The notes under the pieces: model-generated
Database searches by the model: none
Told to the model about the DNA's origin: nothing
Seen by the model: the letters and a program-made list of their open reading frames with translations, nothing else
Assembly: GCA_016712345.1 (NCBI GenBank)
Contig: JADJRH010000002.1
Span: forward strand, 392,466-456,465
Direction of reading: 5' to 3'
DNA: 64,000 nucleotides
DNA from: Polyangiaceae bacterium
GTDB taxonomy: Bacteria; Myxococcota_A; Polyangia; Polyangiales; Polyangiaceae
Translations under genes and position numbers: made by a program
Shown here: positions 10,221 through 59,790 of the stretch, in pieces
Layout: every line of letters starts with the position of its first letter
Numbering within the stretch: position 1 is the stretch's first letter

Positions 10221-10251
10221 ACGTTCGTTCGTAAACGAACCGTCGCCGAAA

Positions 10252-21687: not shown

Positions 21688-21703
21688 TGAGGAACCTCCC
21701 CGC

Positions 21704-31980: not shown

Positions 31981-32157
31981 CGCCCGGGCATTTTCGTTCG
32001 CTCGGCACACAATCCCACATTAGCGCCGGCTGCCCCTCGAAAAAAAGCGCCGGCTGCTCCTCAAAACGAGCCCTACAAAACAAGCCCTTTTTGCCCTTTT
32101 TGTCTTTTTGCTCTCAATTCGCAAACCGAAATCGCAAACAGGCGTAGAAACGTTTTG

Positions 32158-39202: not shown

Positions 39203-41035
39203 ATGCCGGCTCTTCGCAACATCGCCATTGTGGCTCACGTCGACCACGGAAAAACCACCCTCGTTGATCACATGCTTCGCCAAACAGGCGCGTTACGCGA
39301 CAACGAGGTGGTCGCCGAACGTGTCATGGACTCCAACGATCTCGAGCGCGAGCGCGGGATCACCATTTTGGCCAAAAATACGAGCATTCGTTACAAACAA
39401 AACAAGATCAACATCGTCGACACACCCGGCCACGCCGACTTCGGCGGCGAAGTGGAGCGCACCCTGATGATGGCCGACGGCGCGCTTCTCCTTGTGGACG
39501 CTGCCGAAGGGCCTCTTCCTCAAACGCGCTTCGTTCTCTCCAAATGCCTCGATCGCGGCTTTCCTGTCATCGTTGTGATCAACAAGATCGACCGCTCCGA
39601 CGCACGTCCGCATGAGGTTCTTTCGGAGGCATTCGATCTCTTCTGCGACCTCGGAGCTTCCGACGAACAAACCGATTTTCCGCATGTGTACGCAATTGGA
39701 AAACTCGGCCAATCCCGGCGCGAACTCGACGATCCGCCCTCCAACCTAGTGCCGCTGCTCGATATGATTTTAGAGCGCGTTCCCGAGCCGAAGGGCGATC
39801 CAAACGAGCCGCTCCAAGTGATCATCTGCAACACCACGCACGACGACTACGTGGGCAAACTTGCAGTCGGTCGCGTGGTTCGCGGCACCATTCGCCAAGG
39901 CGCTGAAGTCGCCGTCCTCGGCGAAGGCGCGGTGACAAAGGCCAACGTAAAAATGCTCTACACGTTTGAAGGCCTGCGTCGCGCCTCGTGTGACGCTGCC
40001 GTCGCCGGTGAAATCGTGGCGATCGCGGGCATGGACTCGGTCACCATCGGCGACACCATCAGCGATCCCGAAAAGCAGGAAGCGCTGCCGCGGATCGTTG
40101 TTGAAGAGCCGACAATCAAAATGCGCATCGGCGTCAACACGTCGCCGTTCGCCGGCAAGTCAAAATCGTCCAAGTTTTTAACGAGCCGCCACCTCAAAGA
40201 ACGCCTTGAAAAAGAGGCTCAAAAGAACCTCGCCATTCGCGTTGAACCCACCGAAACACCCGACACGTTTTTGGTGCTCGGCCGCGGTGAACTTCAGCTC
40301 GCGATCCTCGTGGAGACAATGCGCCGCGAGGGATACGAAATGCAGCTTTCAAACCCCGAAGTTGTGACGCGCGTCATCGACGGCGAAACCATGGAGCCGA
40401 TGGAACTCGTGGTTGTCGACGTGCCCGACGCATACGTCGGCATCGTGACCGAGCGGCTTTCTTCGCGGCGTGGACGCATGGTCAAAATGCTCAACCCGGG
40501 CTTTGGCCGAGCGCGTTTGGAGTTCCGTGTACCCTCGCGCGGCCTGATCGGCTTCCGCGGCGAGTTCCTCACTTCAACGCGTGGCACCGGCCTCCTCAAC
40601 ACGCTTTTCGACGGCTGGGCAACGTGGGGTGGTCCCATGATGCGAAGGCCAATGGGAGCTATTGTTGCGGACCGCGGCGGTGTCGCCACGCCCTACGCGC
40701 TCCATCACCTTCAACCGCGCGGCCAGTTCTTTGTTGTGCCGGGCGTGGATGTTTACGAAGGCATGATCATCGGCGAACACAACCGTCCGAACGACACCGA
40801 CGTGAACGTCATCCGCGAGAAGAAGCTCTCGAACATCCGCAACCACGGCAAAGACGAAAACGTGATGCTGGCGAGCCCACGCCTTCTCACCATCGAAACC
40901 GCCATGGAGTGGATCGATCGCGACGAGCTTGTGGAGGTCACTCCCGACGCCGTGCGTGTTCGCAAAAAAGAGCTTTTGATCAATCGCCGCGATCGCCGCC
41001 AAGACGCGATCGAAGAGGCGCAGGCGGTCGAGTGA
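39203..41035 (+). CDS. typA: Translational GTPase TypA/BipA.
   Basis: [15 protein letters not shown]1, DTPGHADF G3 and NKIDR G4 motifs, plus a TypA-like C-terminal domain. Confidence 0.95.
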
Positions 41036-46148: not shown

Positions 46149-48113
46149 TTACTCAATGACAAAAATCGGTTGACTGATGGTTGAACCGTCGCGCATGTAG
46201 GCCGAAAGCCACGCTCGCGAGCGAAGCACAAGATTGGGGTCAACCAACGTTAGGGTGACGGTCGTGGCGGAAGCAAACGCCGTTGGTGGAAGCGGTTTGG
46301 TGACAACCACCTGACCATTTTCATCTTCCAAAACAAACGCTGCGCCCGAAATGTCGTTCACGTTGATCGACGGATTGCCGTCAAGCCACAACTCTGGATC
46401 GCGCACCCCGGGAGTTGGGTCGACAAACACCCCGCACTTGACACATAGAGGATCGATCGGTTGCGGCCAAACACCGTTGGAGGCCGCACGCGACTCAACA
46501 ACACAATGTGGAATCTCCGATGTACAGACGGTTTCCCCAGGCGGATTGGCCGCGACGTTGTCCTGTCTGGCACTTCGCAGCTCCCTTACCGCGTTGGATG
46601 GCGCAGGGTTTTGACCCGCAATAGAAGTTGACGGCTGCCACAGCCATGGGATGTTCTGAGGACAAGTGTACGCTTCGGCGCCGTCACATTGGGCGGCACG
46701 CGAAAAGGGAACAGTATTGGATTCTGCCAAAAGGTCTTGCACGAGATCGGTCGCCACTTGATTTCCACTCGCATGCCAACGCACGGCCAAACGAGCGCCC
46801 ACCAAAGCCGCACTCACGGATGTACCGTTTAGAAATGGCGGAACGTCCTTGTCATCTACCCACCCGATACCGCCAAATCCGATGGCCACCGCTTCGGCAC
46901 AGGCCGATGGTCGAGACAAAGCGAGTGGCGCCCCATGGAAGTCTACTCCAGCTACACTCAACAGATGATCGGGGGGTTGTTCTGCGCTTTCGGGCGTGAA
47001 GAGCGCGGCCCCCGGGTGTTTCATATTCGAAAAGGCGAGAAAATCCTGCTTTATCAAATTCCACTCAGCGTTTCCCCACAATGCGGCGCACGTGACTTCA
47101 CTGGGGACCACGGCATGATCCCATCGCGCTGGACAAAGAAGGCCCTGACCCTGCTGGGGGCCTCCTGGGCTGTTGCCCGCGGCACTGATATGAACACCGC
47201 CCAAACATCCGGCGGCATGATAAGCGTCGGCGAGAGCTTGGACCGCTAGGCTCGAAGTAGACGGATCGTCCGAACACGGGCTATCAACATCGTTGTTGTC
47301 GAATCCAAAAGCCGACACCAGCACCCATCGGAGCGGTGTTGTCTTTGCGAGGTCGGGGTTTTGCGCCACCGCGCTCAACTCGGAACGACGCGCTCTCACC
47401 TCGTTCCAAAGAGCTTCGGTCACATCACTCAACAATCCGAAACTGCCACCCGTGACGTTCACCACGGGCCTACCCATCGTGTCCAGTTGGCGAGGTAGAG
47501 CCAACACCGATCGCACCTGAATAGGGCAGTTGCTCCTATCTTCACATGCGAGATCCGTTGCCATGGCAGCGAGGGTGCGCCCGTGTTGTGCGCCGGCGGG
47601 CAAGACGTTTGGAGACTTTTCTCCAACAGTATCGAGGAATGTTACCCGCACTGAAGTCCCACTTTTGGACGATGGCAATCGTGCCCCCACCGAGGCGCGC
47701 AGCTCATCGCGAGCCCAAAAAGTCAACGCGTCCGCATTGGCCTGCGGCGTTGTGAACGTGCAATCGGATTCGGCTCCTTCCGGTAAGGATGCGATGTCCG
47801 CGGCTGAAGGGGACGTGGAAGGATCGCTCCATGTGTACCTACACAAAACCGCGGAATCGGCATCGGGGCCAGCCAACGGCGCATCGTCAAACCCGGTAAG
47901 CTGCGCGGCACAGGCGCCGCTCGCTTGGGTGGGAGCTACCCAGAATGGACAGGTTCCGATGGGTACTCCGTTTTCTTCAGGCGCTTCAGGCATGCCTTCA
48001 CACGCGTCGGATACCGGTGGGGAGGTGGTGCCATCGCAGGCTCCCCAATGAAAAACGCTCAAGACCGAAAGAACAAGGGTAGAAGTCAGCCTCAGGTTGG
48101 ATAGACGTGTCAC
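46149..48113 (-). CDS. Secreted, highly divergent subtilase-like (S8-like) protein.
   Basis: Signal peptide. Candidate catalytic motifs FLDTVG (Asp), YHAAGCLGG (His), ISAAGNSPGG (oxyanion Asn) and NGTSVSAA (Ser) in the canonical order. The assignment is tentative. Confidence 0.45.
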   Translation of the reverse strand: MTRLSNLRLTSTLVLSVLSVFHWGACDGTTSPPVSDACEGMPEAPEENGVPIGTCPFWVAPTQASGACAAQLTGFDDAPLAGPDADSAVLCRYTWSDPSTSPSAADIASLPEGAESDCTFTTPQANADALTFWARDELRASVGARLPSSKSGTSVRVTFLDTVGEKSPNVLPAGAQHGRTLAAMATDLACEDRSNCPIQVRSVLALPRQLDTMGRPVVNVTGGSFGLLSDVTEALWNEVRARRSELSAVAQNPDLAKTTPLRWVLVSAFGFDNNDVDSPCSDDPSTSSLAVQALADAYHAAGCLGGVHISAAGNSPGGPQQGQGLLCPARWDHAVVPSEVTCAALWGNAEWNLIKQDFLAFSNMKHPGAALFTPESAEQPPDHLLSVAGVDFHGAPLALSRPSACAEAVAIGFGGIGWVDDKDVPPFLNGTSVSAALVGARLAVRWHASGNQVATDLVQDLLAESNTVPFSRAAQCDGAEAYTCPQNIPWLWQPSTSIAGQNPAPSNAVRELRSARQDNVAANPPGETVCTSEIPHCVVESRAASNGVWPQPIDPLCVKCGVFVDPTPGVRDPELWLDGNPSINVNDISGAAFVLEDENGQVVVTKPLPPTAFASATTVTLTLVDPNLVLRSRAWLSAYMRDGSTISQPIFVIE

Positions 48114-48402
48114 GGTTGTTTCCTCTTTTTACAACGAGCCCAAAGGTCCAACGCCGCGTCGGCGCCGCTTTGCCACCACCCAGCCGAAAGTGTTCCGGGG
48201 GCTGCTGAGGATCAACTATGCGGCCGCACCTCTCGATTTGGACAAGCCGGCTGACACATTGCTACAAGATTTGACGCTGCCTGCGTTCAGTTGGGCGAAG
48301 CAACAAAAATTCGAAATACCCACCATTTTTCAGATGTCCGTTTGTCTCGATTGGGCGCGTTTCGAATAGAGCGCACCCCACCGGACAATCCACGCGTCAG
48401 GT

Positions 48403-50724
48403 CTAAGTCGAGTAGATCAACCCCGGGGCAGCGGGTAGGTAGAGGGCCGCAGCCACCCGCTCTGACAAAGTGTCGTCCACAACGTCAATGGCGGCCAACA
48501 CTTCTCCAGCGCCCGCCGCCAAAAACGCATGCGCGAGCCCCATACCGTCGTCTTTGGCAGTTTCGCAACCCAGAAGGCTCACGTATTTGGGCACATGTTG
48601 CAGGCCGAGAATATCCACCACTCGCAGGCGACCACCCCACAGTTCCAACGCGGCTTCAACTCCGTCGCGGCCCAAAAAAGCGGCGTGGCCATCGTAGTGG
48701 AAAATGTGTGTACACGGGTTTTCGAGCTGCGCCAACACGGCTTCGCGTGTGGCTTCGGATCCCGTCAGCTGGACCCATTCGTATCCTCGCCCCGAAATAG
48801 CATCGCGCACCGCAGGGGTCGAGCGTTCAGCCCCGGGTAGATTCTGACTCGGATCAAACACCCCGACGGCGCGCGGCATTTGTGTACACTTACCCGTCTC
48901 CTTCCCCAGCGCCGGAAACCGGTAGCTCACTTGAATTTGATCTGAAAGAACTGTGTTGTTCCATGGCAAAGCCTCAAAAGGTACGTTGCGCAGAGGCCCC
49001 AAGGCGGGCACACGAACGCGCTGGGCGTTTTTGAGGATGTCAGCAAACGGATCGAGCAACAAACTCGCCGCCTCTACCGACAAGGTGGTGGGATTGGCCA
49101 GCACCTGATGGATGGGCCCGGAAGGAATGTGGATCACCGACGTCGCTTCTGAAGAAAGTGCCACACCCACCCAACCATCCAGTTTTGGATGGTAAAACAG
49201 GTCTACCGTGCCCGGTGGCGGTGTGGTGATGCGGGTAACCCGTTTGGAAGCGTTGGCGGGGGATCGCGAGCCACCGCGCCTGTAGTCGCTGATACTTGAC
49301 AGGGAGACTTGTTCTGACTGTGCGAGAGTATAAAAGGCACGGCCTATGTTGTGTTCGATTTCCTCCGCTACGGCCTTTGCAGCCGAGTTGCCGAGGGAAG
49401 AACCACCCGCTGCGGTTTCGGCCAACTGCACGGCGAAATCAACCGACTCCGCGGCCCACCTTTCATGCAGTTCAAAAAAAGTTTCCCGCCCTTCACCCAG
49501 AGGTACAAGCGCGCTCCACTGGTCAAGTGCTTCATGCGCCGTTGTGTACGCATCACGCGCGGACGCCAGTTGGGCCGTGCGACGCAGTGCCCGCGCTCGT
49601 CCTGACAAAGCGCGAAATCCAATCTCCGGTGAGGTCACCTGGCCGTCCACAGTCGGGCTTACGCGCCTAAGCAATTGAGCTGGATCGTCGCGCAGAGCCA
49701 CCTCAACCTGAAGCGGTTGGAGCCAGGAAGTCATTCGAACATCCCCCTTTTCCAGATACTTTTGAGCCTCGGCGAGCAGGGCTTTTGCTTTGGGTAACTC
49801 TCCGAGTTCCACTTCGATAAATGCCGCATTCACAAGTGCGGTCACCATCCCAGTGGGGCATTCGGCGCGGGCTCGCTCAACGGCTTGGTGGGCAGAATGG
49901 AGCGTCTGTGAGACACGATCTTCCCTCCCCACGCCGCGGGTGAGGGCCCAAGCCGCGCTCGTTTGCAGCTTCACTACGGCGCACGGATCCTCCAGATGTG
50001 GAGCCTCAGTCAACAGCCCGTTGGCGATTGCAACGGCCTCGCGGGTTCTACCCAACGTTGCCAATACTTCCATCCGTTGGTTTTCTGCCGCCCTTCGCCG
50101 ATCTGCAAGGCCGAGTCGCGCGCTTTTGCGAAGCACTTTTTCAAGTTGGTAGAGCGCCTCTTTGTAACGGCCCGTTTCAACGGCCCAAATCGACTTGTAA
50201 TAAGCCGCGTCAAGTTGGCATTCCGGGCACCTCGACAAATCATCTTCCTCCCCCCAAAGCAGCGCGCGCGCCGCCTCAAAGTCAAAGTCGCGCGTCATCT
50301 GGATAAATGCCAGCAGGTGTTTGTCGTCTACCGCGTCCGACAGTCGACCTTGAGCGCGCCCATCTTGGACTGCCTTTCGCAACAGGTGTTTTGCTTCGTC
50401 CAAAGAACCGCACCTTCGGGCGTGGCGGGCCCTAAGCCGAACAATCGACAGCGCATCAACATGTTGCGACTCAGCCAAAACCAATTGCGCTTCAGCTTCG
50501 TTGCAAGCATTTTTTTGCAACGCTGCAAACGCCGCCGACAACACCGCCGGTTCATTCACCAGCCTTAATTTCAGCGTCAGCTCTGCCTCGCTGCCGACCA
50601 CGCGCAGCGCTCCGTCGACGGAGCCGGGTGTCACCACCAGGCCTGTCCCCCCCTCTAGATTTTTTTTATTATCGCGCTGCCCATGCCACCTGAAACCGGT
50701 TGGACATTGTGGAACGGAACCCAC
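48403..50724 (-). CDS. CHAT-domain (caspase-like His/Cys dyad) protein with N-terminal TPR-like repeats.
   Basis: The C-terminal region contains IFHYDGHAAF...SLLGCETA (His...Cys dyad). The N-terminal 450 aa is helical with repeats. The 5' end overlaps the anti-sigma gene, so the true start is probably downstream of 50724. Confidence 0.7.
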   Translation of the reverse strand: MGSVPQCPTGFRWHGQRDNKKNLEGGTGLVVTPGSVDGALRVVGSEAELTLKLRLVNEPAVLSAAFAALQKNACNEAEAQLVLAESQHVDALSIVRLRARHARRCGSLDEAKHLLRKAVQDGRAQGRLSDAVDDKHLLAFIQMTRDFDFEAARALLWGEEDDLSRCPECQLDAAYYKSIWAVETGRYKEALYQLEKVLRKSARLGLADRRRAAENQRMEVLATLGRTREAVAIANGLLTEAPHLEDPCAVVKLQTSAAWALTRGVGREDRVSQTLHSAHQAVERARAECPTGMVTALVNAAFIEVELGELPKAKALLAEAQKYLEKGDVRMTSWLQPLQVEVALRDDPAQLLRRVSPTVDGQVTSPEIGFRALSGRARALRRTAQLASARDAYTTAHEALDQWSALVPLGEGRETFFELHERWAAESVDFAVQLAETAAGGSSLGNSAAKAVAEEIEHNIGRAFYTLAQSEQVSLSSISDYRRGGSRSPANASKRVTRITTPPPGTVDLFYHPKLDGWVGVALSSEATSVIHIPSGPIHQVLANPTTLSVEAASLLLDPFADILKNAQRVRVPALGPLRNVPFEALPWNNTVLSDQIQVSYRFPALGKETGKCTQMPRAVGVFDPSQNLPGAERSTPAVRDAISGRGYEWVQLTGSEATREAVLAQLENPCTHIFHYDGHAAFLGRDGVEAALELWGGRLRVVDILGLQHVPKYVSLLGCETAKDDGMGLAHAFLAAGAGEVLAAIDVVDDTLSERVAAALYLPAAPGLIYST

Positions 50725-51524
50725 AAGTTTAACGTGGTTTGAGGTGTGATCTCACATGTACCATTGGTCAGAATGCGAATGCATCCAGCAAGCTCAATAT
50801 CGGGTAGATCCAACGATCGAGACGCCGTTTCCCACCCTTCTAGAACCACCTCGCTGTGCAGGATCGCAACACCGGCCGCCCCCGTGTTGCTCGGTTGGGT
50901 GGCCAGCACTGTCAGATCCGTGTCAGGCGGAAGAGTTGGTCCCACCACAAATACCAAACGTGCGGGGCCGTTGGCTTGATTTCCAAGAACTTCTTTAGCA
51001 AGACCATCAACTATGAGAACTCCACCCGATTCTACCCGGTAGGCCACGGGGACAACCGCAGCCTTCCCGTCGCGAACCAAAAGCATTCTCAACGCCGCCG
51101 GCTGCCCTACCATTTCAGGCTTCAGACGAGCTACGAAACGGGTGGACGGCCGCAGATGGATGGGGCCATTCTGGGGGGTATTTACCGATCGAACAGCCAC
51201 ATCCCCCGTCACTTCAAGCGCATAGTGCGGGTAAGAATCCGACGGGTTTCGAACAGCGATGTAAAGTAAAATGCCCGCTGCCAGCGCGAAGGTCGATGCA
51301 GCGACGGGCCATTTTCGGCGCCAAAAAGCGACGTTGGGGCGCACGACGGCGGCACCGGATGTTCGCGAGCGAGCGCGCTCAATGACCCTGTTTTTTTGCG
51401 CCTCATCCATGGGTAGAAGCAGGGTGGGCAATGCGCCTTTGCCGCTCTGTAACTGCTTCGCAAAGGCGTCGATTTCAGGGTCGTTTGATTGGCCGGGGGG
51501 CTCGGATTCGGTGGGCGACGTCAT
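50655..51524 (-). CDS. Putative anti-sigma factor: cytoplasmic N-terminal domain, a single TM helix and an extracytoplasmic domain.
   Basis: ATGA-coupled to the upstream ECF sigma gene. TM segment WPVAASTFALAAGILLYIAV. Confidence 0.5.
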   Translation of the reverse strand: MTSPTESEPPGQSNDPEIDAFAKQLQSGKGALPTLLLPMDEAQKNRVIERARSRTSGAAVVRPNVAFWRRKWPVAASTFALAAGILLYIAVRNPSDSYPHYALEVTGDVAVRSVNTPQNGPIHLRPSTRFVARLKPEMVGQPAALRMLLVRDGKAAVVPVAYRVESGGVLIVDGLAKEVLGNQANGPARLVFVVGPTLPPDTDLTVLATQPSNTGAAGVAILHSEVVLEGWETASRSLDLPDIELAGCIRILTNGTCEITPQTTLNLWVPFHNVQPVSGGMGSAIIKKI

Positions 51525-52198
51525 AACGGCTCTCCGGTGGTGGGTGAAACACCACGCGATGGACGCGGCGCCGCGGTACGCCTGTCCGCCCCTGCGGCCG
51601 CTGAGTCTACTCCAGCCTCCGGGGCGGAAAGCGCTCGCTTTACTTTGGCCTCCATGCGTTGAATTCGTTTGTAGGTGGCGTCCATCGACAGATGAGTTCG
51701 TGCTGCAATTTCCGCCCGCTCTACCCTTTCAAGGTAGAGCCACCGGAACAGCATCACCTCTTCAGCGTCGAGCGAATTCAGCACAGCCGCCACGGTCCTT
51801 GAGAACCCGAGCGCCGCTTCGGGTCCGCTGTCAGGTACCGCGTGCTCATCCAATTCAGAATCGGGAGTTGGGGGAGGTGTCTTTCGGCTGTGATCCCGAA
51901 TCCAACTGCGCGCCACTTCAAACACAAAGGCCTCAAGTGTACCGCGGTTTGGATCAAACAGTCGAAGCTTGTGCCAATGATCCCTGTACAGATATTCAAA
52001 CACTTCCTGTACCAAATCTTCTCGTTCAAAAAAACGCTTGGCACGACCGAAAAGGTATTTGGAAACCGCGGCGTCAATGGTGGGTAAGAGCAGCGATTCA
52101 GACAGCGAGCGTTCGGCCGCCACGTCCCCCGCGAGGGTTCGCTCCAACAAACCGAGCACCGTACTGTCGGCGGTTGGACGAGGGGCAACAGTCATCAC
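51521..52198 (-). CDS. ECF-type sigma-70 family factor.
   Basis: Region 2 (LVQEVFEYLYRDHWHKLRLFDPNRGTLEAFVFEVARSWIRD) and a region 4 HTH (FRWLYLERVERAEIAARTHLSMDATYKRIQRMEAKVKRAL). Confidence 0.85.
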   Translation of the reverse strand: MMTVAPRPTADSTVLGLLERTLAGDVAAERSLSESLLLPTIDAAVSKYLFGRAKRFFEREDLVQEVFEYLYRDHWHKLRLFDPNRGTLEAFVFEVARSWIRDHSRKTPPPTPDSELDEHAVPDSGPEAALGFSRTVAAVLNSLDAEEVMLFRWLYLERVERAEIAARTHLSMDATYKRIQRMEAKVKRALSAPEAGVDSAAAGADRRTAAPRPSRGVSPTTGEPL

Positions 52199-52267
52199 TG
52201 TGAGCGTTACAGCCCGAGGAGCATTTCTGTCAACTGCTCTTTTCTACCCACCTCACGCATGCCCCAA

Positions 52268-52292
52268 AACGGGTAGAGTGTTTCCTCGTTCC
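52268..52292 (-). promoter_or_regulatory. ECF-type promoter GGAAC-N16-CGTT about 60 nt upstream of the ECF sigma start. Candidate autoregulated promoter.
   Basis: On the minus strand, GGAAC is at 52292-52288, then 16 nt, then CGTT at 52271-52268. Confidence 0.35.
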
Positions 52293-52319
52293 AACACTCA
52301 AACCATGGGGTACGCAGTG

Positions 52320-52910
52320 CTACTTACCATCGGCACGCAATGTGTACTCAAGCTTGCGCCCCAGCCCTTTGGGCGTAAGACGCACTGTAATCACGCTTCC
52401 CCTGACCGCGCTGAGTGAAAATGTCTTCTTGTACGCGCCGTCACCTGCCGGGACCGTTTCGGTCACCAGATCAGTACAGTTGCCTTGGGCATCCAATTTG
52501 GAGATCTGAATACCGGTTTCGGCCTTGCCTCCCGTCTTTGTAATCGTCACGGTCATGTTGTCATAGTCAATCACCGGAACCGCGTTGATAAACCTGCGTT
52601 CACCCGGGTTGACCACTGTGCCCTTGAGGTCTTTGCCCAACTCAAGGTCACGCGGCCCAAGGGTGGCCCACGAATTGCCGGCCATACTGTTCCAAAACGT
52701 CTTTGCGTTTTCCACAATTTCGTTTCGTTTCGCGATGCAATCTGCGTCTTTCTTACAACCCAGTGCTTTCAGTTTGTCCTGATGGTTTTTCAGGATCTGA
52801 GCAGCCATGCTCTGACCCCCACACTCCGCTGCGGTGACCGGGGCCGGTGCGGTGGCTGTGGCAAAACCCAAAAGAGCGGCACAAACAAGAACCTTGAGCG
52901 AGCGATTCAT
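52320..52910 (-). CDS. Secreted hypothetical protein.
   Basis: Signal peptide (MNRSLKVLVCAALLGFATATA) and 4 Cys. No recognised motif. Confidence 0.5.
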   Translation of the reverse strand: MNRSLKVLVCAALLGFATATAPAPVTAAECGGQSMAAQILKNHQDKLKALGCKKDADCIAKRNEIVENAKTFWNSMAGNSWATLGPRDLELGKDLKGTVVNPGERRFINAVPVIDYDNMTVTITKTGGKAETGIQISKLDAQGNCTDLVTETVPAGDGAYKKTFSLSAVRGSVITVRLTPKGLGRKLEYTLRADGK

Positions 52911-53179
52911 GATCCTTCTCTCCTCGCACGCGCTCGGCTCACCCCTATTGTGGCCGTCTTCAGCGAGTGCGTTCTAACAATTGCTATGCACCGGCGTTGG
53001 CGGTTTGGACACGGAAGAAAAAAAAGATCTGCTTGACGGTTGTTTCGGGACCGTGGCGTCGGGCAACATTTCACGGCATTTCACGGCGCATGTTCCTAAT
53101 GCGAAGGTGATCAAGCCTCTGGTATAACGCTTTTGAAGCGGTGAAAAACACCACCGCATGCGTGTGCCGGGGCCAAGCA

Positions 53180-55576
53180 ATGAAGACATTTCTGGCGTAC
53201 GGAGCCGATGCTCGTGAGCATGCCGATCTTGCGAAGCGCGTTGCCGTCGACCTCCAAACTGCGGGTATCTGGACTGAAGTCGATCTCCTTGGAACCGCCC
53301 CGCTTGAAGGGTGGCGCGTTTGGAATGACGAACGCCTTGTCGCCGCCGATGTGGTGCTTGTTCTTGCCACCGCCCCGTTTGCGAAGCGAATTGAAGTGGC
53401 CGAAGAAAAAAACGCCGGTCGGTATGACGCCAAGCTCGCACTGCGCGCGCTGCGGGAAAAAAAGCGGGTGGTGCTTGTTGTCCCCGACGACCCTGAACTG
53501 CATCCGGCTCCGGGCTTTCTTGAAGGAAGAGTACACTTCACTTTTCCAACTCAAATGCCGGAGCTAACGGCCCACCTCCAGGAACTCGCGGGTGACCTGC
53601 CGGGTGGAGAAGCCACCGACGGTGCGCCCCTCGTTACAATGCCCGCCGCGGGGGCGCGCCGACCCACTCCCGACACCCCGTCCACAACGCGGGCTCGACG
53701 TTCACCCACGCCGCGTTCCTCCGCTGGCAAAAAGAGTACGGGTACAACCAAAACGTCGTCACCCCGTGTCGACACCTCCAACGTGGTGCGGCGTTACCTG
53801 GAAAAGGTCTGCGAAAGCTACGAAAAAGCCGAACTCGACAAAATGTTTGTCCGACCTTCGGGTGAATCGGCGGGTCGAGTGATTGTTGACTTGGTAGGTC
53901 ACACCAAATCGCTTTTGGAAACCGATCGCCGCGCTCGCGTACTTCTCCTCGGCGACTATGGAACGGGCAAATCGTGGTTCGCGCAGCGCCTCACCTACGA
54001 GTTGGCCAAGTCGGCGCTCGCGGGTGAATTGGATGCTCCACTGCCGGTATTCTTGAGTTTGTCATTTGCCCGCGGCAAACCTTCCCTTGCCAAGGCCATT
54101 GCCATGTTTTTGGCCAGGGTTGATGTTCGCGTTTCAGAACAAGACCTAATTGCGTTTCTCAAAAATTCACCCAAAGTGGTACTCATTCTCGACGGGCTCG
54201 ACGAGCTTGGCGAGCGCATCAAACGCGACGCGGCACCCAAGTTTGTAACCGCACTCAACGAGCTTTCCGCGGCCACGGGGGTCCGATCTGTAATCACCTG
54301 TAGAACAACCTTTTTCAAAGACAGCGTTGATGAAGATCAGGTGGCTGCGACTGAAAAGCTCAACCTCCGCGTTTTCGATGATCGTCAGATTGATGAATAC
54401 CTCCATCGAATGCCCAAGAGCGTCCGTGAGCCAATGGTGGACGTGCTTGATAAAACACCTCGCCTTCGCGAACTCTGCCGCACGCCTATTCACATGTTGC
54501 TCGCCCGTGAACACGTGGCCGAACGAGCCGAGTTGGGTGCCGACTTTCGACTGATTGATCTCTACGACACGTTTGTAAAGAAAAACCTCGCCGCCCACGC
54601 AACCACAAATCCGGGCTGGTCCCAAAAGGCGCGGCGCGATTTTGTGCGCAGCATCGCCTATCAAATGTTCGATGAAGGCCTTTTTGAAATGAGCACAGAA
54701 GCTCTCGAAAAGCTGCTTGCCACCGAGCTGCCCGCGGCGCCGGATGCGGAGAGAGCGCAGGCTTCTACCCAAATCGTCAACGCCAGTTTTTTCGTGCGCG
54801 CGGGAGGTGCATTCAGACCACTCCACTTCTCCTTTTTGGAGTATTTCGCCGCCGAAACGCTTGTAGAAGATCTGTATCAAGGCAAAGTGGACCGGTGGAA
54901 TCGCCGGCCCCTTTACGCTGAAGTGTTTGACTTCATGATTCAAATGATTCAGCGCCGCGGTGTCGACAAACTTCCCGTCGACGCCATTGTCCAAAGTGAA
55001 CGGGAAGAAGCCCCGTCAAACTTCCTCGCGACCATGTACCGCTGGCCCGTTCCTGAAGTGCGCCCCTACTTTGAAAAGCTGCTTCTGAACGGCAAATGGC
55101 CACTTGTTCGCGCCGTTGCATGTCAGGGAGCCGGCCTATATGACGGCGACCGCGTGATTCCATCCCTCCTTTCAGCGTTTGACAACGAGCCAAATACTGT
55201 GATTCGGGCCACGTTGCAGCGCCTTCTTGACAGAGTGCGGCCCTCGGTAACCGAGTCAGAACTGCTTTCCGGTATCAACGATCGCACAAAAATCCCTGTG
55301 AATCTGGTTGCCGATCATGCCGAAGAAATTCTTCGAACCAAACAAAACGGGTTTGCGCTGACCGCCTACAGAAAAGCCTTAATGCTCGGCGACAAGCGAC
55401 CAAGCTCCACTATTGCGGCGATTTACCTGCTGGCCGGAGTTGCCGATTCAGAATCGTATTCATCCATCCAAACGATCGCTCAAAATAGTCAACTTCCGGT
55501 TGTGCGGTTTGCCTATGAGCACGCCTCCACAATTGCACCTCTACCCCCCATCCAACAAGTGGAATCTCCTTCATGA
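53180..55576 (+). CDS. STAND NTPase: N-terminal TIR-like domain, NACHT P-loop NTPase and C-terminal HEAT/ARM-like repeats.
   Basis: TIR-like N-terminus (KTFLAY...VVLVLATAPFAKRIEVAEE). NACHT Walker A VLLLGDYGTGKSW, Walker B VVLILDGLDELG, sensor-1 ITCRTTFF. Helical repeats follow. Confidence 0.65.
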   Translation: MKTFLAYGADAREHADLAKRVAVDLQTAGIWTEVDLLGTAPLEGWRVWNDERLVAADVVLVLATAPFAKRIEVAEEKNAGRYDAKLALRALREKKRVVLVVPDDPELHPAPGFLEGRVHFTFPTQMPELTAHLQELAGDLPGGEATDGAPLVTMPAAGARRPTPDTPSTTRARRSPTPRSSAGKKSTGTTKTSSPRVDTSNVVRRYLEKVCESYEKAELDKMFVRPSGESAGRVIVDLVGHTKSLLETDRRARVLLLGDYGTGKSWFAQRLTYELAKSALAGELDAPLPVFLSLSFARGKPSLAKAIAMFLARVDVRVSEQDLIAFLKNSPKVVLILDGLDELGERIKRDAAPKFVTALNELSAATGVRSVITCRTTFFKDSVDEDQVAATEKLNLRVFDDRQIDEYLHRMPKSVREPMVDVLDKTPRLRELCRTPIHMLLAREHVAERAELGADFRLIDLYDTFVKKNLAAHATTNPGWSQKARRDFVRSIAYQMFDEGLFEMSTEALEKLLATELPAAPDAERAQASTQIVNASFFVRAGGAFRPLHFSFLEYFAAETLVEDLYQGKVDRWNRRPLYAEVFDFMIQMIQRRGVDKLPVDAIVQSEREEAPSNFLATMYRWPVPEVRPYFEKLLLNGKWPLVRAVACQGAGLYDGDRVIPSLLSAFDNEPNTVIRATLQRLLDRVRPSVTESELLSGINDRTKIPVNLVADHAEEILRTKQNGFALTAYRKALMLGDKRPSSTIAAIYLLAGVADSESYSSIQTIAQNSQLPVVRFAYEHASTIAPLPPIQQVESPS

Positions 55577-57711
55577 AATCCTCGCGCGAAGACCTGAAGT
55601 GTCGATGGAAAGCGGCTGAACAGGCGCTTGCCCAGGCCATTTCGCTCTGCGCTGCCGGAGAAAATTGGGTAGAGGCTCTGTCAGAAGTGCCCTTTGTTTC
55701 CGAGGTTCCGGGGGGTAGAGATTTTCGATTTGCGCCGCTCGGCGGGGTCACGTTTGCGGGATGTGAGCTTCACGAGGTTGACTTTACAGGTGCCGATCTG
55801 CGCGGGGCAGACTTTTCAGAAGCGATTCTAACCGCCTCCAAGTTTAATGAAATTCGCGGCGGAACAGCCGTATTCTGGCGTGCAGAAGCCCCGGGAGCGT
55901 CGTTTGCAAAGGCTGAACTGGGGGCCGCAAACCTGTATCAAGCAAACCTGAAAGGCGCCGATATGTCAGGTGCCGATCTGCGCGACGCTTATCTCGAACA
56001 AACCAATCTCCACCGCGCGGATCTTCGCAACGCCGATCTGACAGGTGCTCGTCTACCCAAAGCCAATGCGTCCAACGGTCAGCTCGACGGTGTACGTGCC
56101 GACGGAGCCGACCTAACAGAGGTCGACCTGCAACATGCTTATTTGCCCGGCAGCTCCTTTACGGGAGCCGTGCTCGCAAAAATATCGGCCATGGGCGCCG
56201 ACCTTCAAAGCGCCGACATGTGCAGCGCCGACCTGCGCGGGGCCGACTTTACGGGTGCCCGGTTCGGCGCCGCAAACCTTGATGAAGTCCAGGCGGAAGG
56301 GGCCCGTTTCGGAGGGGCGTGGCTTGCCGCTGTGAGCGCTCGGGGCGCCGATTTGCGACGCTCTGATATGTCAGGTACCGATCTTGAAGCGGCTGTTTTG
56401 GAGCACGCAAAGCTCGTTGGAGCCCGCCTTTCAGGTGCCAAACTTACCGCTGCTGTTTTGTCGGGTGCCGACTTGTCCGAGGCCGACTGCCGCAATTCGT
56501 CATGGGCAGATGCGGTGCTCGACGGCGCCAAGATGAACCGCGCGGCTCTGTATGGCAGCAGCATCTTTTTGGCGAAAGGCCTCCGCTCCGTCACCGCCAG
56601 TGAGGCCGACTTGGGCCCCACTCCAGACAGGCCGCTCTATCGATCGTGGACCGAGTTTGTGGGTAGATTGCAGGGCCTCTACGATGAAGATCAAAGCCAA
56701 AAAGGCGCTCCAAGTGAACCGCGTGCCCAAGGCAAACGCATTGAGCTGTCTCGTGGAGCAGCGCTTGGGCGATACCAGGTAGAAGATTTTTTGGGTGAAG
56801 GGGGCATGGGTAGAATTTATAGAGCGCTCGATACTCGCCTGGGTAGACGTGTGGCGCTCAAAGTTTTACTTACCACCGAACCCGGTCAAACAGGCGGAAC
56901 ACGAACCGCTCGGCTTGAACGCGAGGCGCGCGCTGCGGCGTTGATTGAGTCACCTTTTGCCGTGTCTGTATTTGACGTGGGAGAAGTGGACGGGTTGTCG
57001 TTTATCGCCATGGAACTTGTAACCGGCAAAACCCTTTCCAACTATGTGGGGGCGCTTCAACCGGGCTGGCCCATGCGCGTTCGTTGGCTCTCCCAAGTGG
57101 CAAGTGCGCTTGCGGCGGCTCATCGCGTGGGGATCATCCATCGCGATATCAAACCCGAAAACATTATGATTCGCGACGACGGAACCGCCAAAGTGCTCGA
57201 CTTTGGCATTGCGCGCAGAGCCGTTGGTACAGGTGAAACGCGCAGCGGTCCACTTGAATTTGTCGCCACAATCACCGTTGAAGGTTCACCCGTTGGAACG
57301 CCTCTCTACATGGCGCCTGAACAGCTCCGGGGAGACACTCTCGACGGGCGCACAGACCAGTTTGCCTGGGCGGTCACCGCGTATGAATTGTTGACGGGTA
57401 GACAGGCGTGGAAAGGGTCGGCATTTGCCGCCCTTGCGCGCATTCTGACCGACGAGCCGTTACAGGTTCGAGCGCTCCAGCCGCGCATTCCCGAAGGTGT
57501 GGCTCAAGTCATTCATCGAGCGCTCGCGAAACAGCCGTCGGCGCGTTTTCCAAATATGGAAGCTATCGTGGCAGAACTCGCACCGTTTGCCGCCCTACCC
57601 GATGAGCCCAACCTCCCACATTACCGTTTGGGGGACGAAATGTCACCCGCCGCAGACTTGCAACCTACCATTGGTGCTCAGGATCCCATTGCGCCGGCGG
57701 AACGCCGGTAA
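55573..57711 (+). CDS. Pentapeptide-repeat protein fused to a C-terminal Ser/Thr protein kinase. ATGA-coupled to the upstream NACHT gene.
   Basis: Over 20 A(D/N)LxxA pentapeptide units (GADLRGADFSEA, ANLKGADMSGADLRDAYLEQTNL...). Kinase motifs GEGGMGRIY, ALKVL, HRDIKPENIMI, DFGIAR and APE. Confidence 0.8.
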   Translation: MKSSREDLKCRWKAAEQALAQAISLCAAGENWVEALSEVPFVSEVPGGRDFRFAPLGGVTFAGCELHEVDFTGADLRGADFSEAILTASKFNEIRGGTAVFWRAEAPGASFAKAELGAANLYQANLKGADMSGADLRDAYLEQTNLHRADLRNADLTGARLPKANASNGQLDGVRADGADLTEVDLQHAYLPGSSFTGAVLAKISAMGADLQSADMCSADLRGADFTGARFGAANLDEVQAEGARFGGAWLAAVSARGADLRRSDMSGTDLEAAVLEHAKLVGARLSGAKLTAAVLSGADLSEADCRNSSWADAVLDGAKMNRAALYGSSIFLAKGLRSVTASEADLGPTPDRPLYRSWTEFVGRLQGLYDEDQSQKGAPSEPRAQGKRIELSRGAALGRYQVEDFLGEGGMGRIYRALDTRLGRRVALKVLLTTEPGQTGGTRTARLEREARAAALIESPFAVSVFDVGEVDGLSFIAMELVTGKTLSNYVGALQPGWPMRVRWLSQVASALAAAHRVGIIHRDIKPENIMIRDDGTAKVLDFGIARRAVGTGETRSGPLEFVATITVEGSPVGTPLYMAPEQLRGDTLDGRTDQFAWAVTAYELLTGRQAWKGSAFAALARILTDEPLQVRALQPRIPEGVAQVIHRALAKQPSARFPNMEAIVAELAPFAALPDEPNLPHYRLGDEMSPAADLQPTIGAQDPIAPAERR

Positions 57712-57723
57712 GGAGGGAAAAAC

Positions 57724-58173
57724 GTGCAAATTAACGGAATTGCGCACATTCAACTGTCTGTCACCAACTTGCAAGTTAGCCGAGCGTTTTATAAAAAACT
57801 GTTTGACCTGTTTGAAATGAAGGTCATCTTTGACGATGACACGGCATTCTACGGCGTTGGAGGTAGAACGGGTGTTGCGCTTTCACCGGTGGATGAAGCG
57901 CACAAAGAAGACCGATTTGTTCAGCGACGGGTAGGTTTGCATCACCTCTGCTTTCGCCTGCGTGCCCGTGAAGATGTAGACACTCTTTATACTTACCTTC
58001 TGGAAATGGGTGCCAAAATCATCCATGCGCCCGAAAACGGCCCCTGGGCCGAAGGGTATTATTCTGTGCTTTTTGAGGATCCCGACGGCATTCGCCTGGA
58101 AGCCAATTTCGTTCCGGGCAAAGGCAATCTCGATCCGGCTGTCCAACTTCCAAAGCCTGTTCCGCAGGTATAA
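57724..58173 (+). CDS. VOC / glyoxalase-bleomycin-resistance-family protein. GTG start.
   Basis: A paired beta-alpha-beta-beta-beta module (IAHIQLSVTNLQVSRAFY...GLHHLCFRL...). Confidence 0.75.
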   Translation: MQINGIAHIQLSVTNLQVSRAFYKKLFDLFEMKVIFDDDTAFYGVGGRTGVALSPVDEAHKEDRFVQRRVGLHHLCFRLRAREDVDTLYTYLLEMGAKIIHAPENGPWAEGYYSVLFEDPDGIRLEANFVPGKGNLDPAVQLPKPVPQV

Positions 58174-58224: not shown

Positions 58225-59790
58225 ATGACACGTCTCGCATTGGTCGATCTCGATCCAGTATTACCCAATTTAACGTCTCAACTGCTGCTCCCACGCCATG
58301 ACATTCTCGCCGTTGGCACCGCGGCCTTTGCCGCGGGCAAACACGTGGATGTGTTCGTAGAAGCGTGGAACGGCGTCCCGTTCAACGACCTTGCCAACTA
58401 CAACGTTGTGGGAGCATCCGTCACCGGTTCAAGCATGAGCCGTGTGATCAAAATGTTCGCCGATATCCGTCGAAAAAGCCCCAAAACTGTGCTCATTGCC
58501 GGCGGTCCTCATGCCACCCTCATTCCGAGCGATGTGTCTGCTTTTGCCGATATCGTTATTCGAGATGAGGGGGAAGACACGCTTGTAGAAGTGTTGAACG
58601 CGATCGAAAAGGGAACCGATCCGCTGGCAATTCCAGGTGTCAGCATTCGAAAAGAAGGGCGCACCTACCATGCTCCGCGCCGCCCATTTCGAAAGGGAAA
58701 CGCTCCAAGCAATCTCTCTCTGCTGCGCGGATTTCGACGAAAGTCGCTCCTTGGTCAACTGCGTCAGGGCGGCGTTTATACAGGGTATGCAACCGCCTCG
58801 CGCGGCTGTCCTTTCCCCTGCACATTCTGCTATGAAAACATGATCGGCGGCACCGGATTCAGAAAACAGGGCATTGACGCCTTTATCGAAGACGTTCGCA
58901 ACAAGCGCGATCTCCTTGGAACCAAGAGTTTTTGGCTCGCCGACTCAAACTTTACAACCCATCCTGAACACTGCCGTCAGGTTCTCCAGGCGATTATCGA
59001 CGCCAAGCTCGGCGTCAGCTTTTCTGCCCTGTGCCGTACCGACATGGGAGATCGGCCCGAGTTACTCGATCTCATGCGTCGCGCCGGCTTTGAAAGCGCC
59101 ATTTTGGGCATTGAAGCCGTGGATGATGACACGTTGGTGCGCATCAAGAAAAAACAAACGGTGCTCGACTCAAGCCGAGCGGTGCGAGCCATTCAAAACG
59201 CGGGAATTGGTGTGTATGGGCTGTTTATGCTCGGGTTTGATCATGACACCCGCCACTCGCCCCGAGCTGTCACCGCTTTTGCCGAGGAACACAACCTGAA
59301 GGGCGTGAGCATTTACTTGCTTTGCGAATATGAGAGCCTGCCCGGCCGCACCTTACCTCGCTACCGGATTTGTGAGCGCAACTTGGACTATTATAATGGC
59401 CACTTCGTGACCACATTCCCCATGCGCGTGCGTCCGAGTCAACTGGAGCGCGCGTCGTTTGAGGCGCTTCTCGCCTACCATCCCAAAAAAGTGCTCGCCA
59501 GTCTAAAGGACCGCGACGCTGAAATGGCCGTGTTTCACGCAGCGCACTACGTTCAACTTCTGCGCATGTGGCGTGTTTCGTTGGAGCACCAAAAAACGCT
59601 CCAGCAAATTGAAGCGCCTTTTTACTCCAGAGACCATGTGCTCAACGTCGAGGCGCTGCGAAAGGCTCCCGTGGTGCCTTTGCAGCTGTCACCTGACATT
59701 ACTTCAGACTGGGAAGATCCCGATGAACTCGTTGCGCCGGCCAAACTGGTGCAGTTGAGCAAAAAGCCGCAGCCGTCTGTGGCAGCGTAA
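58225..59790 (+). CDS. B12-binding-domain radical SAM protein (class B).
   Basis: An N-terminal cobalamin-binding fold (LIAGGPHATL) and CPFPCTFC (Cx3Cx2C). Confidence 0.8.
   Translation: MTRLALVDLDPVLPNLTSQLLLPRHDILAVGTAAFAAGKHVDVFVEAWNGVPFNDLANYNVVGASVTGSSMSRVIKMFADIRRKSPKTVLIAGGPHATLIPSDVSAFADIVIRDEGEDTLVEVLNAIEKGTDPLAIPGVSIRKEGRTYHAPRRPFRKGNAPSNLSLLRGFRRKSLLGQLRQGGVYTGYATASRGCPFPCTFCYENMIGGTGFRKQGIDAFIEDVRNKRDLLGTKSFWLADSNFTTHPEHCRQVLQAIIDAKLGVSFSALCRTDMGDRPELLDLMRRAGFESAILGIEAVDDDTLVRIKKKQTVLDSSRAVRAIQNAGIGVYGLFMLGFDHDTRHSPRAVTAFAEEHNLKGVSIYLLCEYESLPGRTLPRYRICERNLDYYNGHFVTTFPMRVRPSQLERASFEALLAYHPKKVLASLKDRDAEMAVFHAAHYVQLLRMWRVSLEHQKTLQQIEAPFYSRDHVLNVEALRKAPVVPLQLSPDITSDWEDPDELVAPAKLVQLSKKPQPSVAA

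Follow-up and report, generated by a model that had tools for sequence, protein, structure and literature searches.

The window (the whole stretch of 64,000 nucleotides analyzed, from a Polyangiaceae bacterium) contains four co-directional genes in a single, closely packed block, with intergenic gaps of -4, 12, and 51 nt. The genes, the upstream region, and the parts of the first protein are:

52911..53179, no strand: upstream intergenic region, presumed promoter, with the tandem 10-mer CATTTCACGG x2 at 53067-53086
53180..55576, + strand: gene 1, SEFIR/TIR-fold–disordered linker–NACHT–α-solenoid STAND NTPase, 798 aa, MBK8255315.1
53180..53599, + strand: SEFIR-type STIR (TIR/SEFIR) domain of gene 1, presumed effector or adaptor (aa 1-140)
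53606..53767, + strand: disordered linker of gene 1, rich in Ser/Thr/Pro/Arg (aa 143-196; pLDDT 23-48)
53927..54421, + strand: NACHT nucleotide-binding core of gene 1 (aa about 250-414; PF05729 spans aa 256-414 of the Pfam query)
54917..55549, + strand: C-terminal α-solenoid of gene 1 (HEAT-like), presumed sensor (aa 580-790; all-helical repeats, pLDDT about 90)
55573..55576, + strand: stop/start overlap of genes 1 and 2 (ATGA)
55573..57711, + strand: gene 2, pentapeptide-repeat β-helix and Hanks Ser/Thr kinase, 712 aa, MBK8255316.1
57724..58173, + strand: gene 3, VOC/glyoxalase-fold metalloenzyme, 149 aa
58225..59790, + strand: gene 4, class B (B12-binding) radical SAM enzyme, 521 aa

A preliminary description of this DNA gave two open reading frames, 53141..55576 and 55573..57711 (both on the + strand). 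Both are present, and the overlap of the NACHT stop with the ATG of the kinase gene is read directly at 55573-55576. The first frame stands but not its start at GTG 53141: the most likely start is ATG 53180, in agreement with the NCBI protein and with the N-termini of all orthologues. The VOC gene, which had been placed as a divergent neighbor, is on the same strand, 12 nt past the kinase stop, and the two-gene inventory had overlooked the B12-binding radical SAM gene, 51 nt beyond the VOC gene. The catalytic motifs are all intact. Promoter and terminator scans of the upstream region give no signal above chance. The tandem CATTTCACGG repeat is rejected as a conserved operator (it is missing from the other cassette loci), and so is a cobalamin riboswitch or other RNA, the only RNA found in the window being one tRNA.

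The NACHT, HEAT, pentapeptide, and kinase domains named in the preliminary description all score above their Pfam thresholds. In gene 1, NACHT (PF05729) reaches 53 bits (cut-off 26.7) and HEAT_2 29.2 bits (cut-off 27.7). The Walker A (GDYGTGKS) and Walker B (VLILDGLDE) motifs are retained family-wide, with G258, G261, G263, K264, D338, G339, D341, and E342 invariant in the core; with a NACHT match above the gathering score and both Walker motifs, gene 1 belongs to the NACHT-clade STAND NTPases. The full-length model (pLDDT 78) has as top PDB matches NOD2, NLRC4, and NLRP3 (E 6e-14 to 1e-9), and the predicted folds resemble TIR/SEFIR and animal NLRs. The layout is tripartite (effector, NOD with helical and winged-helix parts, repeat sensor) and NLR-like in structure. 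A sequence search of solved structures yields no close relative of the NACHT protein, the VOC enzyme, or the radical SAM enzyme.

The N-terminal domain had been called TIR-like. It does belong to the TIR superfamily, with a flavodoxin-like STIR fold and a profile match, but by sequence profile it is SEFIR rather than TIR proper. The SEFIR profile matches 7/7 members of the NACHT family (best E 3.6e-17), as does TIR_2 (best E 1.7e-7); the window domain alone reaches 22.9 bits against the SEFIR cut-off of 23. A conserved acidic residue, E72 in helix 65-77, is a candidate catalytic residue. This putative catalytic Glu is absent in one locus (L003) and, in L003 and L004, the SEFIR and NACHT parts are in different frames. 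The linker varies in length and sequence among orthologues, with Ser+Thr at 26-43% versus 9-11% in the rest of the protein (7/7 orthologues), and could be a phosphorylation target. The best conserved region of the protein is the solenoid (54-62% identity among orthologues) together with the helical/winged-helix part (aa 416-575; 46-68%), compared with 40-53% for the NBD and 28-41% for SEFIR.

Gene 2 carries Pentapeptide repeats (PF00805, 179 bits, eight stretches over about aa 50-335) followed by Pkinase (PF00069, 124 bits, aa 401-663). The G-loop, K430, H523-R524-D525, N530, D543-F544-G545, and A581-P582-E583 are invariant in six orthologues. From the profile and these catalytic residues, gene 2 is predicted to be an active-type Hanks Ser/Thr kinase. 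Ordinary Myxococcota kinases are 50-59% identical to its kinase domain. The pentapeptide subfamilies stay below their cut-offs (HetL 129 vs. 260, Qnr 71 vs. 240, MfpA 72 vs. 360).

Gene 3 matches Glyoxalase (PF00903) with 61 bits. Residues H8, H73/H74, E118, and E126 (His/Glu metal ligands) are conserved in five orthologues, and the Fos subfamilies are not reached (FosB 36.5 vs. 171, Fos_GSH 33 vs. 180, NCBIfam). The VOC gene always lies directly 3′ of the kinase gene or one small gene beyond. Gene 4 combines an N-terminal B12-binding domain (PF02310, 41 bits) with Radical_SAM (PF04055, 57 bits); the motif CPFPCTFC, with C195, C199, and C202 (CX3CX2C), is invariant in 20 orthologues. It is therefore a class B radical SAM enzyme, without a specific NCBIfam family (best about 90 bits vs. 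cut-offs of 360-600).

Related loci come from Polyangiaceae MAGs, Pendulispora albinea, and soil metagenomes. Wherever a related locus has enough flank, it contains all four families, arranged in one of three gene orders. The order NACHT>kinase>VOC>radical SAM is that of the window, L003, and L004. The order NACHT>radical SAM>kinase>VOC occurs in Pendulispora albinea (L001), L098, and two JGI contigs; two loci that are cut (L002 and L097) are consistent with it. In L005/L014, the order is radical SAM<>NACHT>228-aa gene>kinase. The domains of the two genes first described have profile support, and their homologues do co-occur: each full-length kinase orthologue with enough flank (5/5) is clustered with a NACHT orthologue, the sixth locus (L097) being cut before the NACHT position. 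In most loci, it is the radical SAM gene, not the kinase gene, that lies directly 3′ of the NACHT gene, in some cases sharing the 4-nt overlap. Such an overlap between the NACHT gene and the next gene, whichever that is, occurs in L004, L005, L014, and the P0006 contig. Overlaps of 4 nt (ATGA) are frequent in operons and unremarkable alone; the significant fact, and the one that carries the weight, is the conserved co-occurrence.

The families are very rare. Among 5.8 billion (5.8e9), about 10 clusters belong to the NACHT family and six to the kinase family, with a drop in kinase-family score from 641 to 340 bits after the sixth match. Among 98 loci, the NACHT and VOC family HMMs match cassette loci only. 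Pendulispora albinea has the cassette, and there is no Pendulispora brunnea orthologue among the matches.

In an exhaustive search, about 20 cluster representatives share the NACHT and solenoid parts (profile positions about 165-777) with other N-termini: trypsin, DUF676 esterase, kinase, EAD1/EAD8, and BTAD. The solenoid region is homologous in these effector-swapped relatives too. The radical SAM gene adjoins NACHT relatives bearing SEFIR, trypsin, or DUF676 N-termini. For the swapped relatives, the link is seen in at least two cases, from accession order and a shared contig: a trypsin-NACHT protein (MDX1964962.1) and a radical SAM enzyme (MDX1964963.1) have consecutive accessions in a Pirellulales MAG, and a DUF676-NACHT protein (P0202) is with a radical SAM enzyme (P0048) on one 4665-bp contig. 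Contig matching gives no further radical SAM link among 10 more distant NACHT-family matches (P0205-P0221). Swapping of this kind is typical of NLR-like conflict systems; the radical SAM enzyme recurs as a partner and appears to stay when the N-terminal effector changes. The effector swapping points to a conflict-type system.

The module types of genes 1 and 2 also occur in one chain elsewhere, as Pkinase–NACHT–solenoid (P0203, P0204), Pkinase–nSTAND1–pentapeptide (P0154, P0165, P0176), and DUF4062–NACHT–pentapeptide (P0011) fusions, which supports a functional link among kinase, STAND, and pentapeptide modules. The single-chain kinase–STAND–pentapeptide proteins, and the NACHT–pentapeptide proteins P0180 and P0011, use the cassette's three module types (Hanks kinase, STAND NTPase, pentapeptide β-helix). 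In them the modules are fused, the NTPase is of the nSTAND1 type, and the pentapeptide array occupies the C-terminal sensor position, whereas, in the cassette, the array is on a separate kinase protein and an α-solenoid holds the sensor position. A special kinship of the P0203/P0204 kinase domains with the cassette kinase is rejected, since their identity (37-41%) is below that of ordinary Myxococcota kinases.

Standalone orthologues of the radical SAM enzyme adjoin giant type I PKS, FAAL, and acyltransferase genes in Acidobacteriota-type loci. Other phyla have the family either by itself or with PKS genes as neighbors and, within the cassette clade, one member (L094) lacks partners within 8 kb. 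The enzyme thus has an independent existence.

The locus lies amid housekeeping genes (DnaK, release factor, PFK, FabH), with synteny conserved in related MAGs. A defence island is rejected, the rest of the window being housekeeping, as is a mobile origin, with no relatives among viral contigs or plasmids. A phosphonate or RiPP cluster is likewise rejected: the PhpK, Fos, and Qnr similarities are far under cut-offs, and the loci conserve neither a precursor nor a PEP mutase or transporter. In Pendulispora and L002, the cassettes are preceded by fatty-acid oxidation genes and an IclR regulator. The defence catalogues (PADLOC, NCBIfam) give no system-level match; for the NACHT/kinase pair, in which a possible defence cassette had been seen, PADLOC has no system. 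The bSEFIR profile (PDLC03957) reaches gene 1 with E 0.0043 and 14.9 bits over profile positions 40-198 of 412 only, the SEFIR part. There is no Avs/AVAST match (EruA E 0.023, 12.8 bits vs. a cut-off of 1000), and the PD-T4-6 models match the kinase domain only (E 1e-76), equally with PknB (E 9e-74) and many other kinase models.

Descriptions of bacterial NLR-like proteins mostly concern single genes whose products bind phage proteins directly. With bNACHT (10.1101/2022.07.19.500537) and the STAND conflict systems (PMC7159879, PMC8195603), gene 1 shares the effector–NACHT–C-terminal repeat layout, the structural match to NOD2, NLRC4, and NLRP3, the occurrence in multicellular-type bacteria, and N-terminal swapping (including TIR-superfamily, trypsin, kinase, and EAD). 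It differs from them in its conserved four-gene operon, in which a B12-radical SAM enzyme, the recurring partner, is joined by a pentapeptide kinase and a VOC enzyme, in a sensor that is conserved rather than variable, and in a setting that is not a defence island. bSEFIR (10.1101/2022.05.11.491447) is alike in an N-terminal SEFIR scoring better than TIR, but it consists of a single gene and differs in its C-terminal part, and for it no NACHT, kinase, VOC, or radical SAM partners are described. A bacterial SEFIR defence protein depletes NAD+ through its SEFIR domain (10.1101/2024.02.11.579819). We found no published description of the NACHT, kinase, VOC, and B12-radical SAM combination in the literature.

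Class B radical SAM enzymes acting on lipids or polyketides include HpnJ/HpnR, PhpK, and TokK. The archaeal GDGT-modifying class B (B12-binding) enzymes also act on lipids (PMC11214058). All of these have the B12-binding domain and the CX3CX2C core in common with gene 4, but for none of them is an NLR-like linkage described.

The reading that we favor, although held at somewhat less than even confidence, is that the locus is a four-gene operon with an NLR-like STAND switch at its center, forming a conflict or cell-fate system with sensing tied to the radical SAM enzyme. The better conservation of the solenoid, compared with the effector or the NBD, supports it. What the conserved solenoid reads would be linked to the radical SAM enzyme of the operon: this enzyme as such, or a metabolite, lipid-like or other, modified by it. 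The solenoid would not track a fast-evolving invader protein. Ligand binding and ATP would lead to NACHT oligomerization and, through it, to SEFIR clustering, with NAD+ cleavage as in bSEFIR or SEFIR-SEFIR scaffolding as the possible output. The kinase, docked via its pentapeptide β-helix, may tune the switch by phosphorylating the NACHT protein in the Ser/Thr-rich linker or the NOD (compare AfsK on AfsR), and the VOC enzyme may remove or detoxify the radical SAM product; the roles given to these two proteins we purely infer. Biologically, the operon would most likely govern conflict or cell fate in soil bacteria of the multicellular type, through abortive infection or through growth arrest or death brought on by stress.

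Alternatively, the operon could be a regulatory module for metabolism, with the enzymes of genes 3 and 4 modifying a lipid or secondary metabolite under the dedicated control of the NACHT protein and the kinase. This we regard as unlikely, yet it deserves serious weight. The documented precedent is AfsK/AfsR, in which a Hanks kinase is likewise encoded near a STAND NTPase: AfsK phosphorylates AfsR in the NOD and TPR domains, altering ATPase activity and oligomerization (PMC10936776). That unit regulates secondary metabolism and includes no enzymes; in AfsR the output is a DNA-binding SARP domain, the NOD is of the NB-ARC type, and the sensor consists of TPRs, and AfsK is without pentapeptide repeats (PMC10936776). 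The syntenic housekeeping setting, the fatty-acid oxidation genes and IclR regulator before two cassettes, the PKS, FAAL, and acyltransferase neighbors of radical SAM orthologues, and a sensor domain that is conserved and not diversifying all fit such a module, as does the BTAD/SARP transcription domain of one distant relative (P0213). That relative is, however, the sole one with BTAD; the window protein lacks a SARP/BTAD output and bears SEFIR, with no DNA-binding or other obvious regulatory output, and most of the remaining N-termini in the family are effectors or adaptors of the death type (trypsin, DUF676 esterase, EAD1, EAD8). Further, the cassettes have no conserved PKS or other core biosynthetic neighbor, and the families are extremely rare and patchy, as the two Pendulispora species illustrate.

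A small biosynthetic and self-resistance cluster is improbable. The radical SAM enzyme would make or methylate a toxic compound or peptide, and the pentapeptide repeats (Qnr-, McbG-, or AlbG-like) and the VOC enzyme (Fos- or bleomycin-binding-like) would protect the producer. The NCBIfam similarities of the radical SAM enzyme to PhpK-type P-methyltransferases and RiPP C-methyltransferases, of the VOC enzyme to FosA/FosB, and of the repeats to Qnr/MfpA go in that direction, but weakly and far under the family cut-offs (e.g., 92 bits vs. 600; 36 vs. 171). Across the loci, neither a precursor peptide nor a PEP mutase, a transporter, or any further biosynthetic gene is conserved. The repeats share a chain with an intact kinase, and the reading leaves the NLR-like partner and its swapped effectors unexplained. 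Least probable by far, and contradicted by the related loci, is the self-contained NACHT/kinase module of the preliminary description, with the VOC and radical SAM genes as unrelated neighbors: the ATGA overlap does join only genes 1 and 2 in the window, but the conserved unit comprises four genes, the VOC and radical SAM orthologues accompanying every cassette with enough flank despite the three gene orders, the radical SAM gene most often following the NACHT gene directly, and the VOC family being confined to cassette loci among the 98.

On a bolder reading, the locus would define a new class of multi-gene NLR-type systems (enzyme-coupled or "guarded-metabolite" NLRs), a speculative proposal that is rather more likely wrong than right. 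The conserved sensor of the NACHT protein would monitor a B12-radical SAM enzyme or its lipid-like metabolite, with interchangeable death or signaling outputs (SEFIR, protease, esterase, kinase, adaptor). In the SEFIR branch, regulation would be built in through the pentapeptide-repeat kinase and signal removal through the VOC enzyme. With Pendulispora albinea, a named species with a complete genome, the idea should be testable.

In these bacteria, a conserved operon ties an NLR-like switch to a kinase, a metalloenzyme, and a B12-radical SAM enzyme; the switch has a conserved sensor and a swapped effector. If the proposal is true, this would be an NLR that either guards an enzyme or responds to a signal made by one, nearer to the indirect sensing of plant and animal immunity, and it would give a first biological context to a radical SAM family of soil Myxococcota, Planctomycetota, and Acidobacteriota-type lineages.

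Four genes form a conserved operon on one strand of the window:
53141..55576, + strand: gene 1, ORF of the NACHT protein
55573..57711, + strand: gene 2, ORF of the pentapeptide kinase
57724..58173, + strand: gene 3, VOC protein (149 aa), 12 nt past the kinase stop
58225..59790, + strand: gene 4, B12-binding radical SAM protein (rSAM, 521 aa), 51 nt past gene 3

The stop of gene 1 overlaps the start of gene 2 in an ATGA at 55573-55576, as first described, and the ORF after gene 4 is convergent. The VOC gene, which the preliminary description placed divergently, is on the same strand. The ORF of gene 1 from 53141 stands, with ATG 53180 as its likely start, since the resulting 798-aa product is identical to MBK8255315.1 (Polyangiaceae MAG) and is aligned with the N-termini of all orthologues. 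The cassette of four families recurs as follows.

Gene order in the cassette loci (locus, source, order)
L001, Pendulispora albinea CP089984: NACHT>rSAM>kinase>VOC
P0006 contig, JGI 3300047160: NACHT>rSAM>kinase>VOC
P0007 contig, JGI 3300047160: NACHT>rSAM>kinase>VOC, with two extra small genes
L098, JGI 3300086341: NACHT>rSAM>kinase>VOC
L002, ENA metagenome: NACHT>rSAM, then locus cut
L097, JGI 3300062841: rSAM (cut)>kinase>VOC
Window, L003, L004/L006, Polyangiaceae MAGs: NACHT>kinase>VOC>rSAM
L005, L014, soil metagenomes: rSAM divergent from NACHT>228-aa gene>kinase, then cut

Each of the five full-length kinase orthologues whose flanks are long enough belongs to such a cluster, so that the expected co-occurrence of NACHT and kinase homologues holds. 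Among 98 loci, about 85 of them with other B12-radical SAM genes, the NACHT and VOC family profiles match only in cassette loci. Because the gene content persists through three gene orders, there is strong evidence that the four genes are a functional unit.

The 228-aa gene (L014 1525-2211, - strand; L005 3359-3760) overlaps the NACHT stop by 4 nt; its product presumably resembles DUF374/lysophospholipid-acyltransferase-like proteins. In the P0007 contig only, a PqqD–radical SAM–SPASM gene (RiPP-maturase type, 8901-10280) follows VOC directly on the opposite strand. An rSAM orthologue (P0033) and an 842-aa, more divergent pentapeptide kinase (P0095, 34% identity) are apparently on one ENA contig of 5747 bp, perhaps an additional, remoter form of the cassette.

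The domains originally read in genes 1 and 2 are borne out by Pfam: NACHT (53 bits vs. cut-off 26.7) and HEAT_2 (29.2 vs. 27.7) in gene 1, and, in gene 2, a Hanks kinase at aa 401-663 (124 bits) preceded by a pentapeptide array at aa about 50-335 (179 bits). The N-terminus of gene 1, first called TIR-like, does fall in the TIR/SEFIR (STIR) superfamily, with SEFIR rather than TIR_2 as the closer profile. Both are sub-threshold in the full-length scan; with isolated domains, both match 7/7 orthologues (best E 3.6e-17 for SEFIR, 1.7e-7 for TIR_2), the gene 1 domain alone scoring 22.9 bits with SEFIR (cut-off 23). The full-length model (pLDDT 78) divides into four parts: the STIR domain; a linker at aa 143-196 that is disordered (pLDDT about 30); the nucleotide-binding oligomerisation region (NOD), with structural matches to NOD2, NLRC4, and NLRP3 (best E 6e-14); and, at aa 580-790, a solenoid that is all-helical (pLDDT about 90). 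In all orthologues, Ser and Thr account for 26-43% of the linker between SEFIR and NACHT, vs. about 10% of the rest of the protein; such a composition is frequent in disordered linkers in general. In two related Polyangiaceae MAGs (L003 7312-9890; L004 5755-9917), the SEFIR and NACHT parts are out of frame, and the otherwise conserved Glu72 is lost along with the frame break; in L004, another, partial copy of SEFIR lies upstream. The break may reflect a true split or decay of the gene, or a misassembly of the GC-rich linker.

Catalytic motifs are intact in all four cassette proteins. In gene 2, the kinase catalytic residues are invariant across the six full-length orthologues, and the next hits are ordinary kinases, with a score drop from 641 to 340 bits. 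Gene 3 has a VOC/glyoxalase fold (61 bits) with conserved His/Glu metal ligands. Gene 4 joins a B12-binding domain to a radical SAM core in which the motif CPFPCTFC is invariant. No specific NCBIfam family is reached: PhpK, HpnJ, "ladderane" lipid rSAM, and BchE come closest, at about 90 bits vs. cut-offs of 360-600.

Close NACHT protein clusters number only about 10 among 5.8 billion. In an exhaustive HMMER search with the NACHT alignment (1.84 billion representatives), only three bear SEFIR. About 20 proteins (P0199-P0218) match from the NOD through the solenoid end and not the SEFIR part; they retain the Walker A and B motifs and carry other N-termini:
DUF676/α-β-hydrolase: P0199, P0200, P0202
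Trypsin-like peptidase: P0201, P0208
Hanks kinase: P0203, P0204
EAD1: P0207
EAD8: P0210
BTAD/SARP: P0213

The family thus keeps an NLR-like core and exchanges its N-terminal outputs. Identity to these relatives is up to 47% in the solenoid vs. 37% in the nucleotide-binding part (NBD); within the SEFIR branch, it is 54-62% in the solenoid, 40-53% in the NBD, and only 28-41% in SEFIR. Judged from these alignments, conservation of the solenoid equals or exceeds that of the NBD. Two effector-swapped relatives appear to adjoin the cassette rSAM family, as judged from accession order and a common contig: trypsin-NACHT MDX1964962.1 with rSAM orthologue MDX1964963.1 (one 328-kb contig of a Pirellulales MAG), and P0202 with rSAM P0048 (one 4665-bp contig).

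Kinase and pentapeptide modules also occur fused to STAND proteins, as Pkinase–nSTAND1–pentapeptide (P0154, P0165, P0176), NACHT–pentapeptide (P0180), and DUF4062–NACHT–pentapeptide (P0011). The kinase domains of P0203 and P0204 share only 37-41% identity with that of the cassette and are thus independent acquisitions. A Hanks kinase fused to a formylglycine-generating-enzyme-like (FGE-sulfatase) domain is encoded at 32157-34304 (+); an FGE-type domain is also the C-terminal "receptor" of P0013, a distant SEFIR–NACHT–FGE protein.

The rSAM family counts about 50 orthologues (identity ≥46%). In a NJ tree, the cassette-linked members form two neighboring clades, including one partner-less member (L094). 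A separate clade comprises the members from Thermoanaerobaculia (Acidobacteriota), Gemmatimonadales, and unclassified metagenome contigs, and in it the gene adjoins giant, highly reducing type I PKS genes and a FAAL-ACP-acyltransferase gene (L008 1233-9986; L016 6575-15112; L017 704-9181, 10767-13574; L009 70-2133). The PKS reads KS-AT-DH-MT-ER-KR-ACP-TE in L008 and FAAL-ACP-KS-AT-DH-KR-ACP-TE in L016; the context is similar in L017, L009, and probably L007. The set is a candidate lipid-like biosynthetic cluster, and these neighbors make a long-chain, lipid-like product the likely substrate class of rSAM. In archaea, B12-radical SAM enzymes modify lipid tails (PMC11214058). The orthologues in L095 and L096 have no conserved neighbors. 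Four tandem paralogous B12-radical SAM genes (36-38% identity to the window rSAM) occur in Bryobacteraceae, Vicinamibacterales, and Thermoanaerobaculia MAGs (L011 9956-16385; L012 967-7309; L013 522-7653).

The window is ordinary chromosome (DnaK, release factor, PFK, FabH, arginine decarboxylase, pyrimidine nucleoside phosphorylase, a two-component pair), its housekeeping genes syntenic with L003/L004. Missing at the syntenic position there is a block at 46149-52910 (- strand), divergent from the cassette:
52320-52910, - strand: 196-aa protein, signal-peptide-like N-terminus
51521-52198, - strand: ECF sigma factor
50655-51524, - strand: 289-aa protein, no family, possibly an anti-sigma factor
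48403-50724, - strand: TPR–CHAT protease-like protein
46149-48113, - strand: 654-aa protein, no family

Unrelated features of the window are:
21554-23443, + strand: second radical SAM protein, 629 aa
35922-35994, + strand: tRNA gene
40624-42927, + strand: MutS-like protein, domains III and V only

A perfect tandem repeat (CATTTCACGG x2, 53067-53086) lies about 95 nt 5′ of the NACHT start codon and is not found upstream of other cassettes. No cobalamin riboswitch was found, PADLOC matches no system, and no relative was found in viral contigs or plasmids. The full-text literature search gave no paper on a NACHT/STAND protein that is linked with a gene for a VOC protein, a pentapeptide kinase, or a B12-radical SAM enzyme. 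NACHT genes of bacteria seldom occur in operons, and those are poorly conserved (Kibby et al., 10.1101/2022.07.19.500537). Kinases and pentapeptide repeats are among known effector/scaffold domains, in surveys that do not list the cassette set (Kaur et al., PMC7159879, PMC8195603).

We tentatively read the cassette as a conflict or cell-fate system. The conserved solenoid would read something linked with the rSAM enzyme, and NACHT oligomerisation would lead to a SEFIR output, either scaffolding or NAD+ cleavage as in bSEFIR, which depletes NAD+ through its SEFIR domain (10.1101/2024.02.11.579819). The kinase might tune the NACHT switch and the VOC enzyme remove the rSAM product. The housekeeping context with no mobile-element link, the autonomy of the rSAM family, and the frame break with Glu72 loss in L003/L004 point against a conflict or cell-fate role. 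A purely regulatory, AfsK/AfsR-like cassette seems less likely; the STAND regulator AfsR is phosphorylated by AfsK in its NOD and TPR domains, which alters ATPase activity and oligomerisation (PMC10936776). Little speaks for a biosynthesis and resistance cluster, the likeness of gene 3 to Fos being weak and under cut-offs, and as little for the two-gene NACHT and kinase module first proposed, whose boundary was wrong, the VOC and rSAM genes being kept with it. The original observation is thus confirmed with corrections and its interpretation partly supported. The locus falls among bacterial NLR-like STAND systems and stands out by its conserved enzyme partners.
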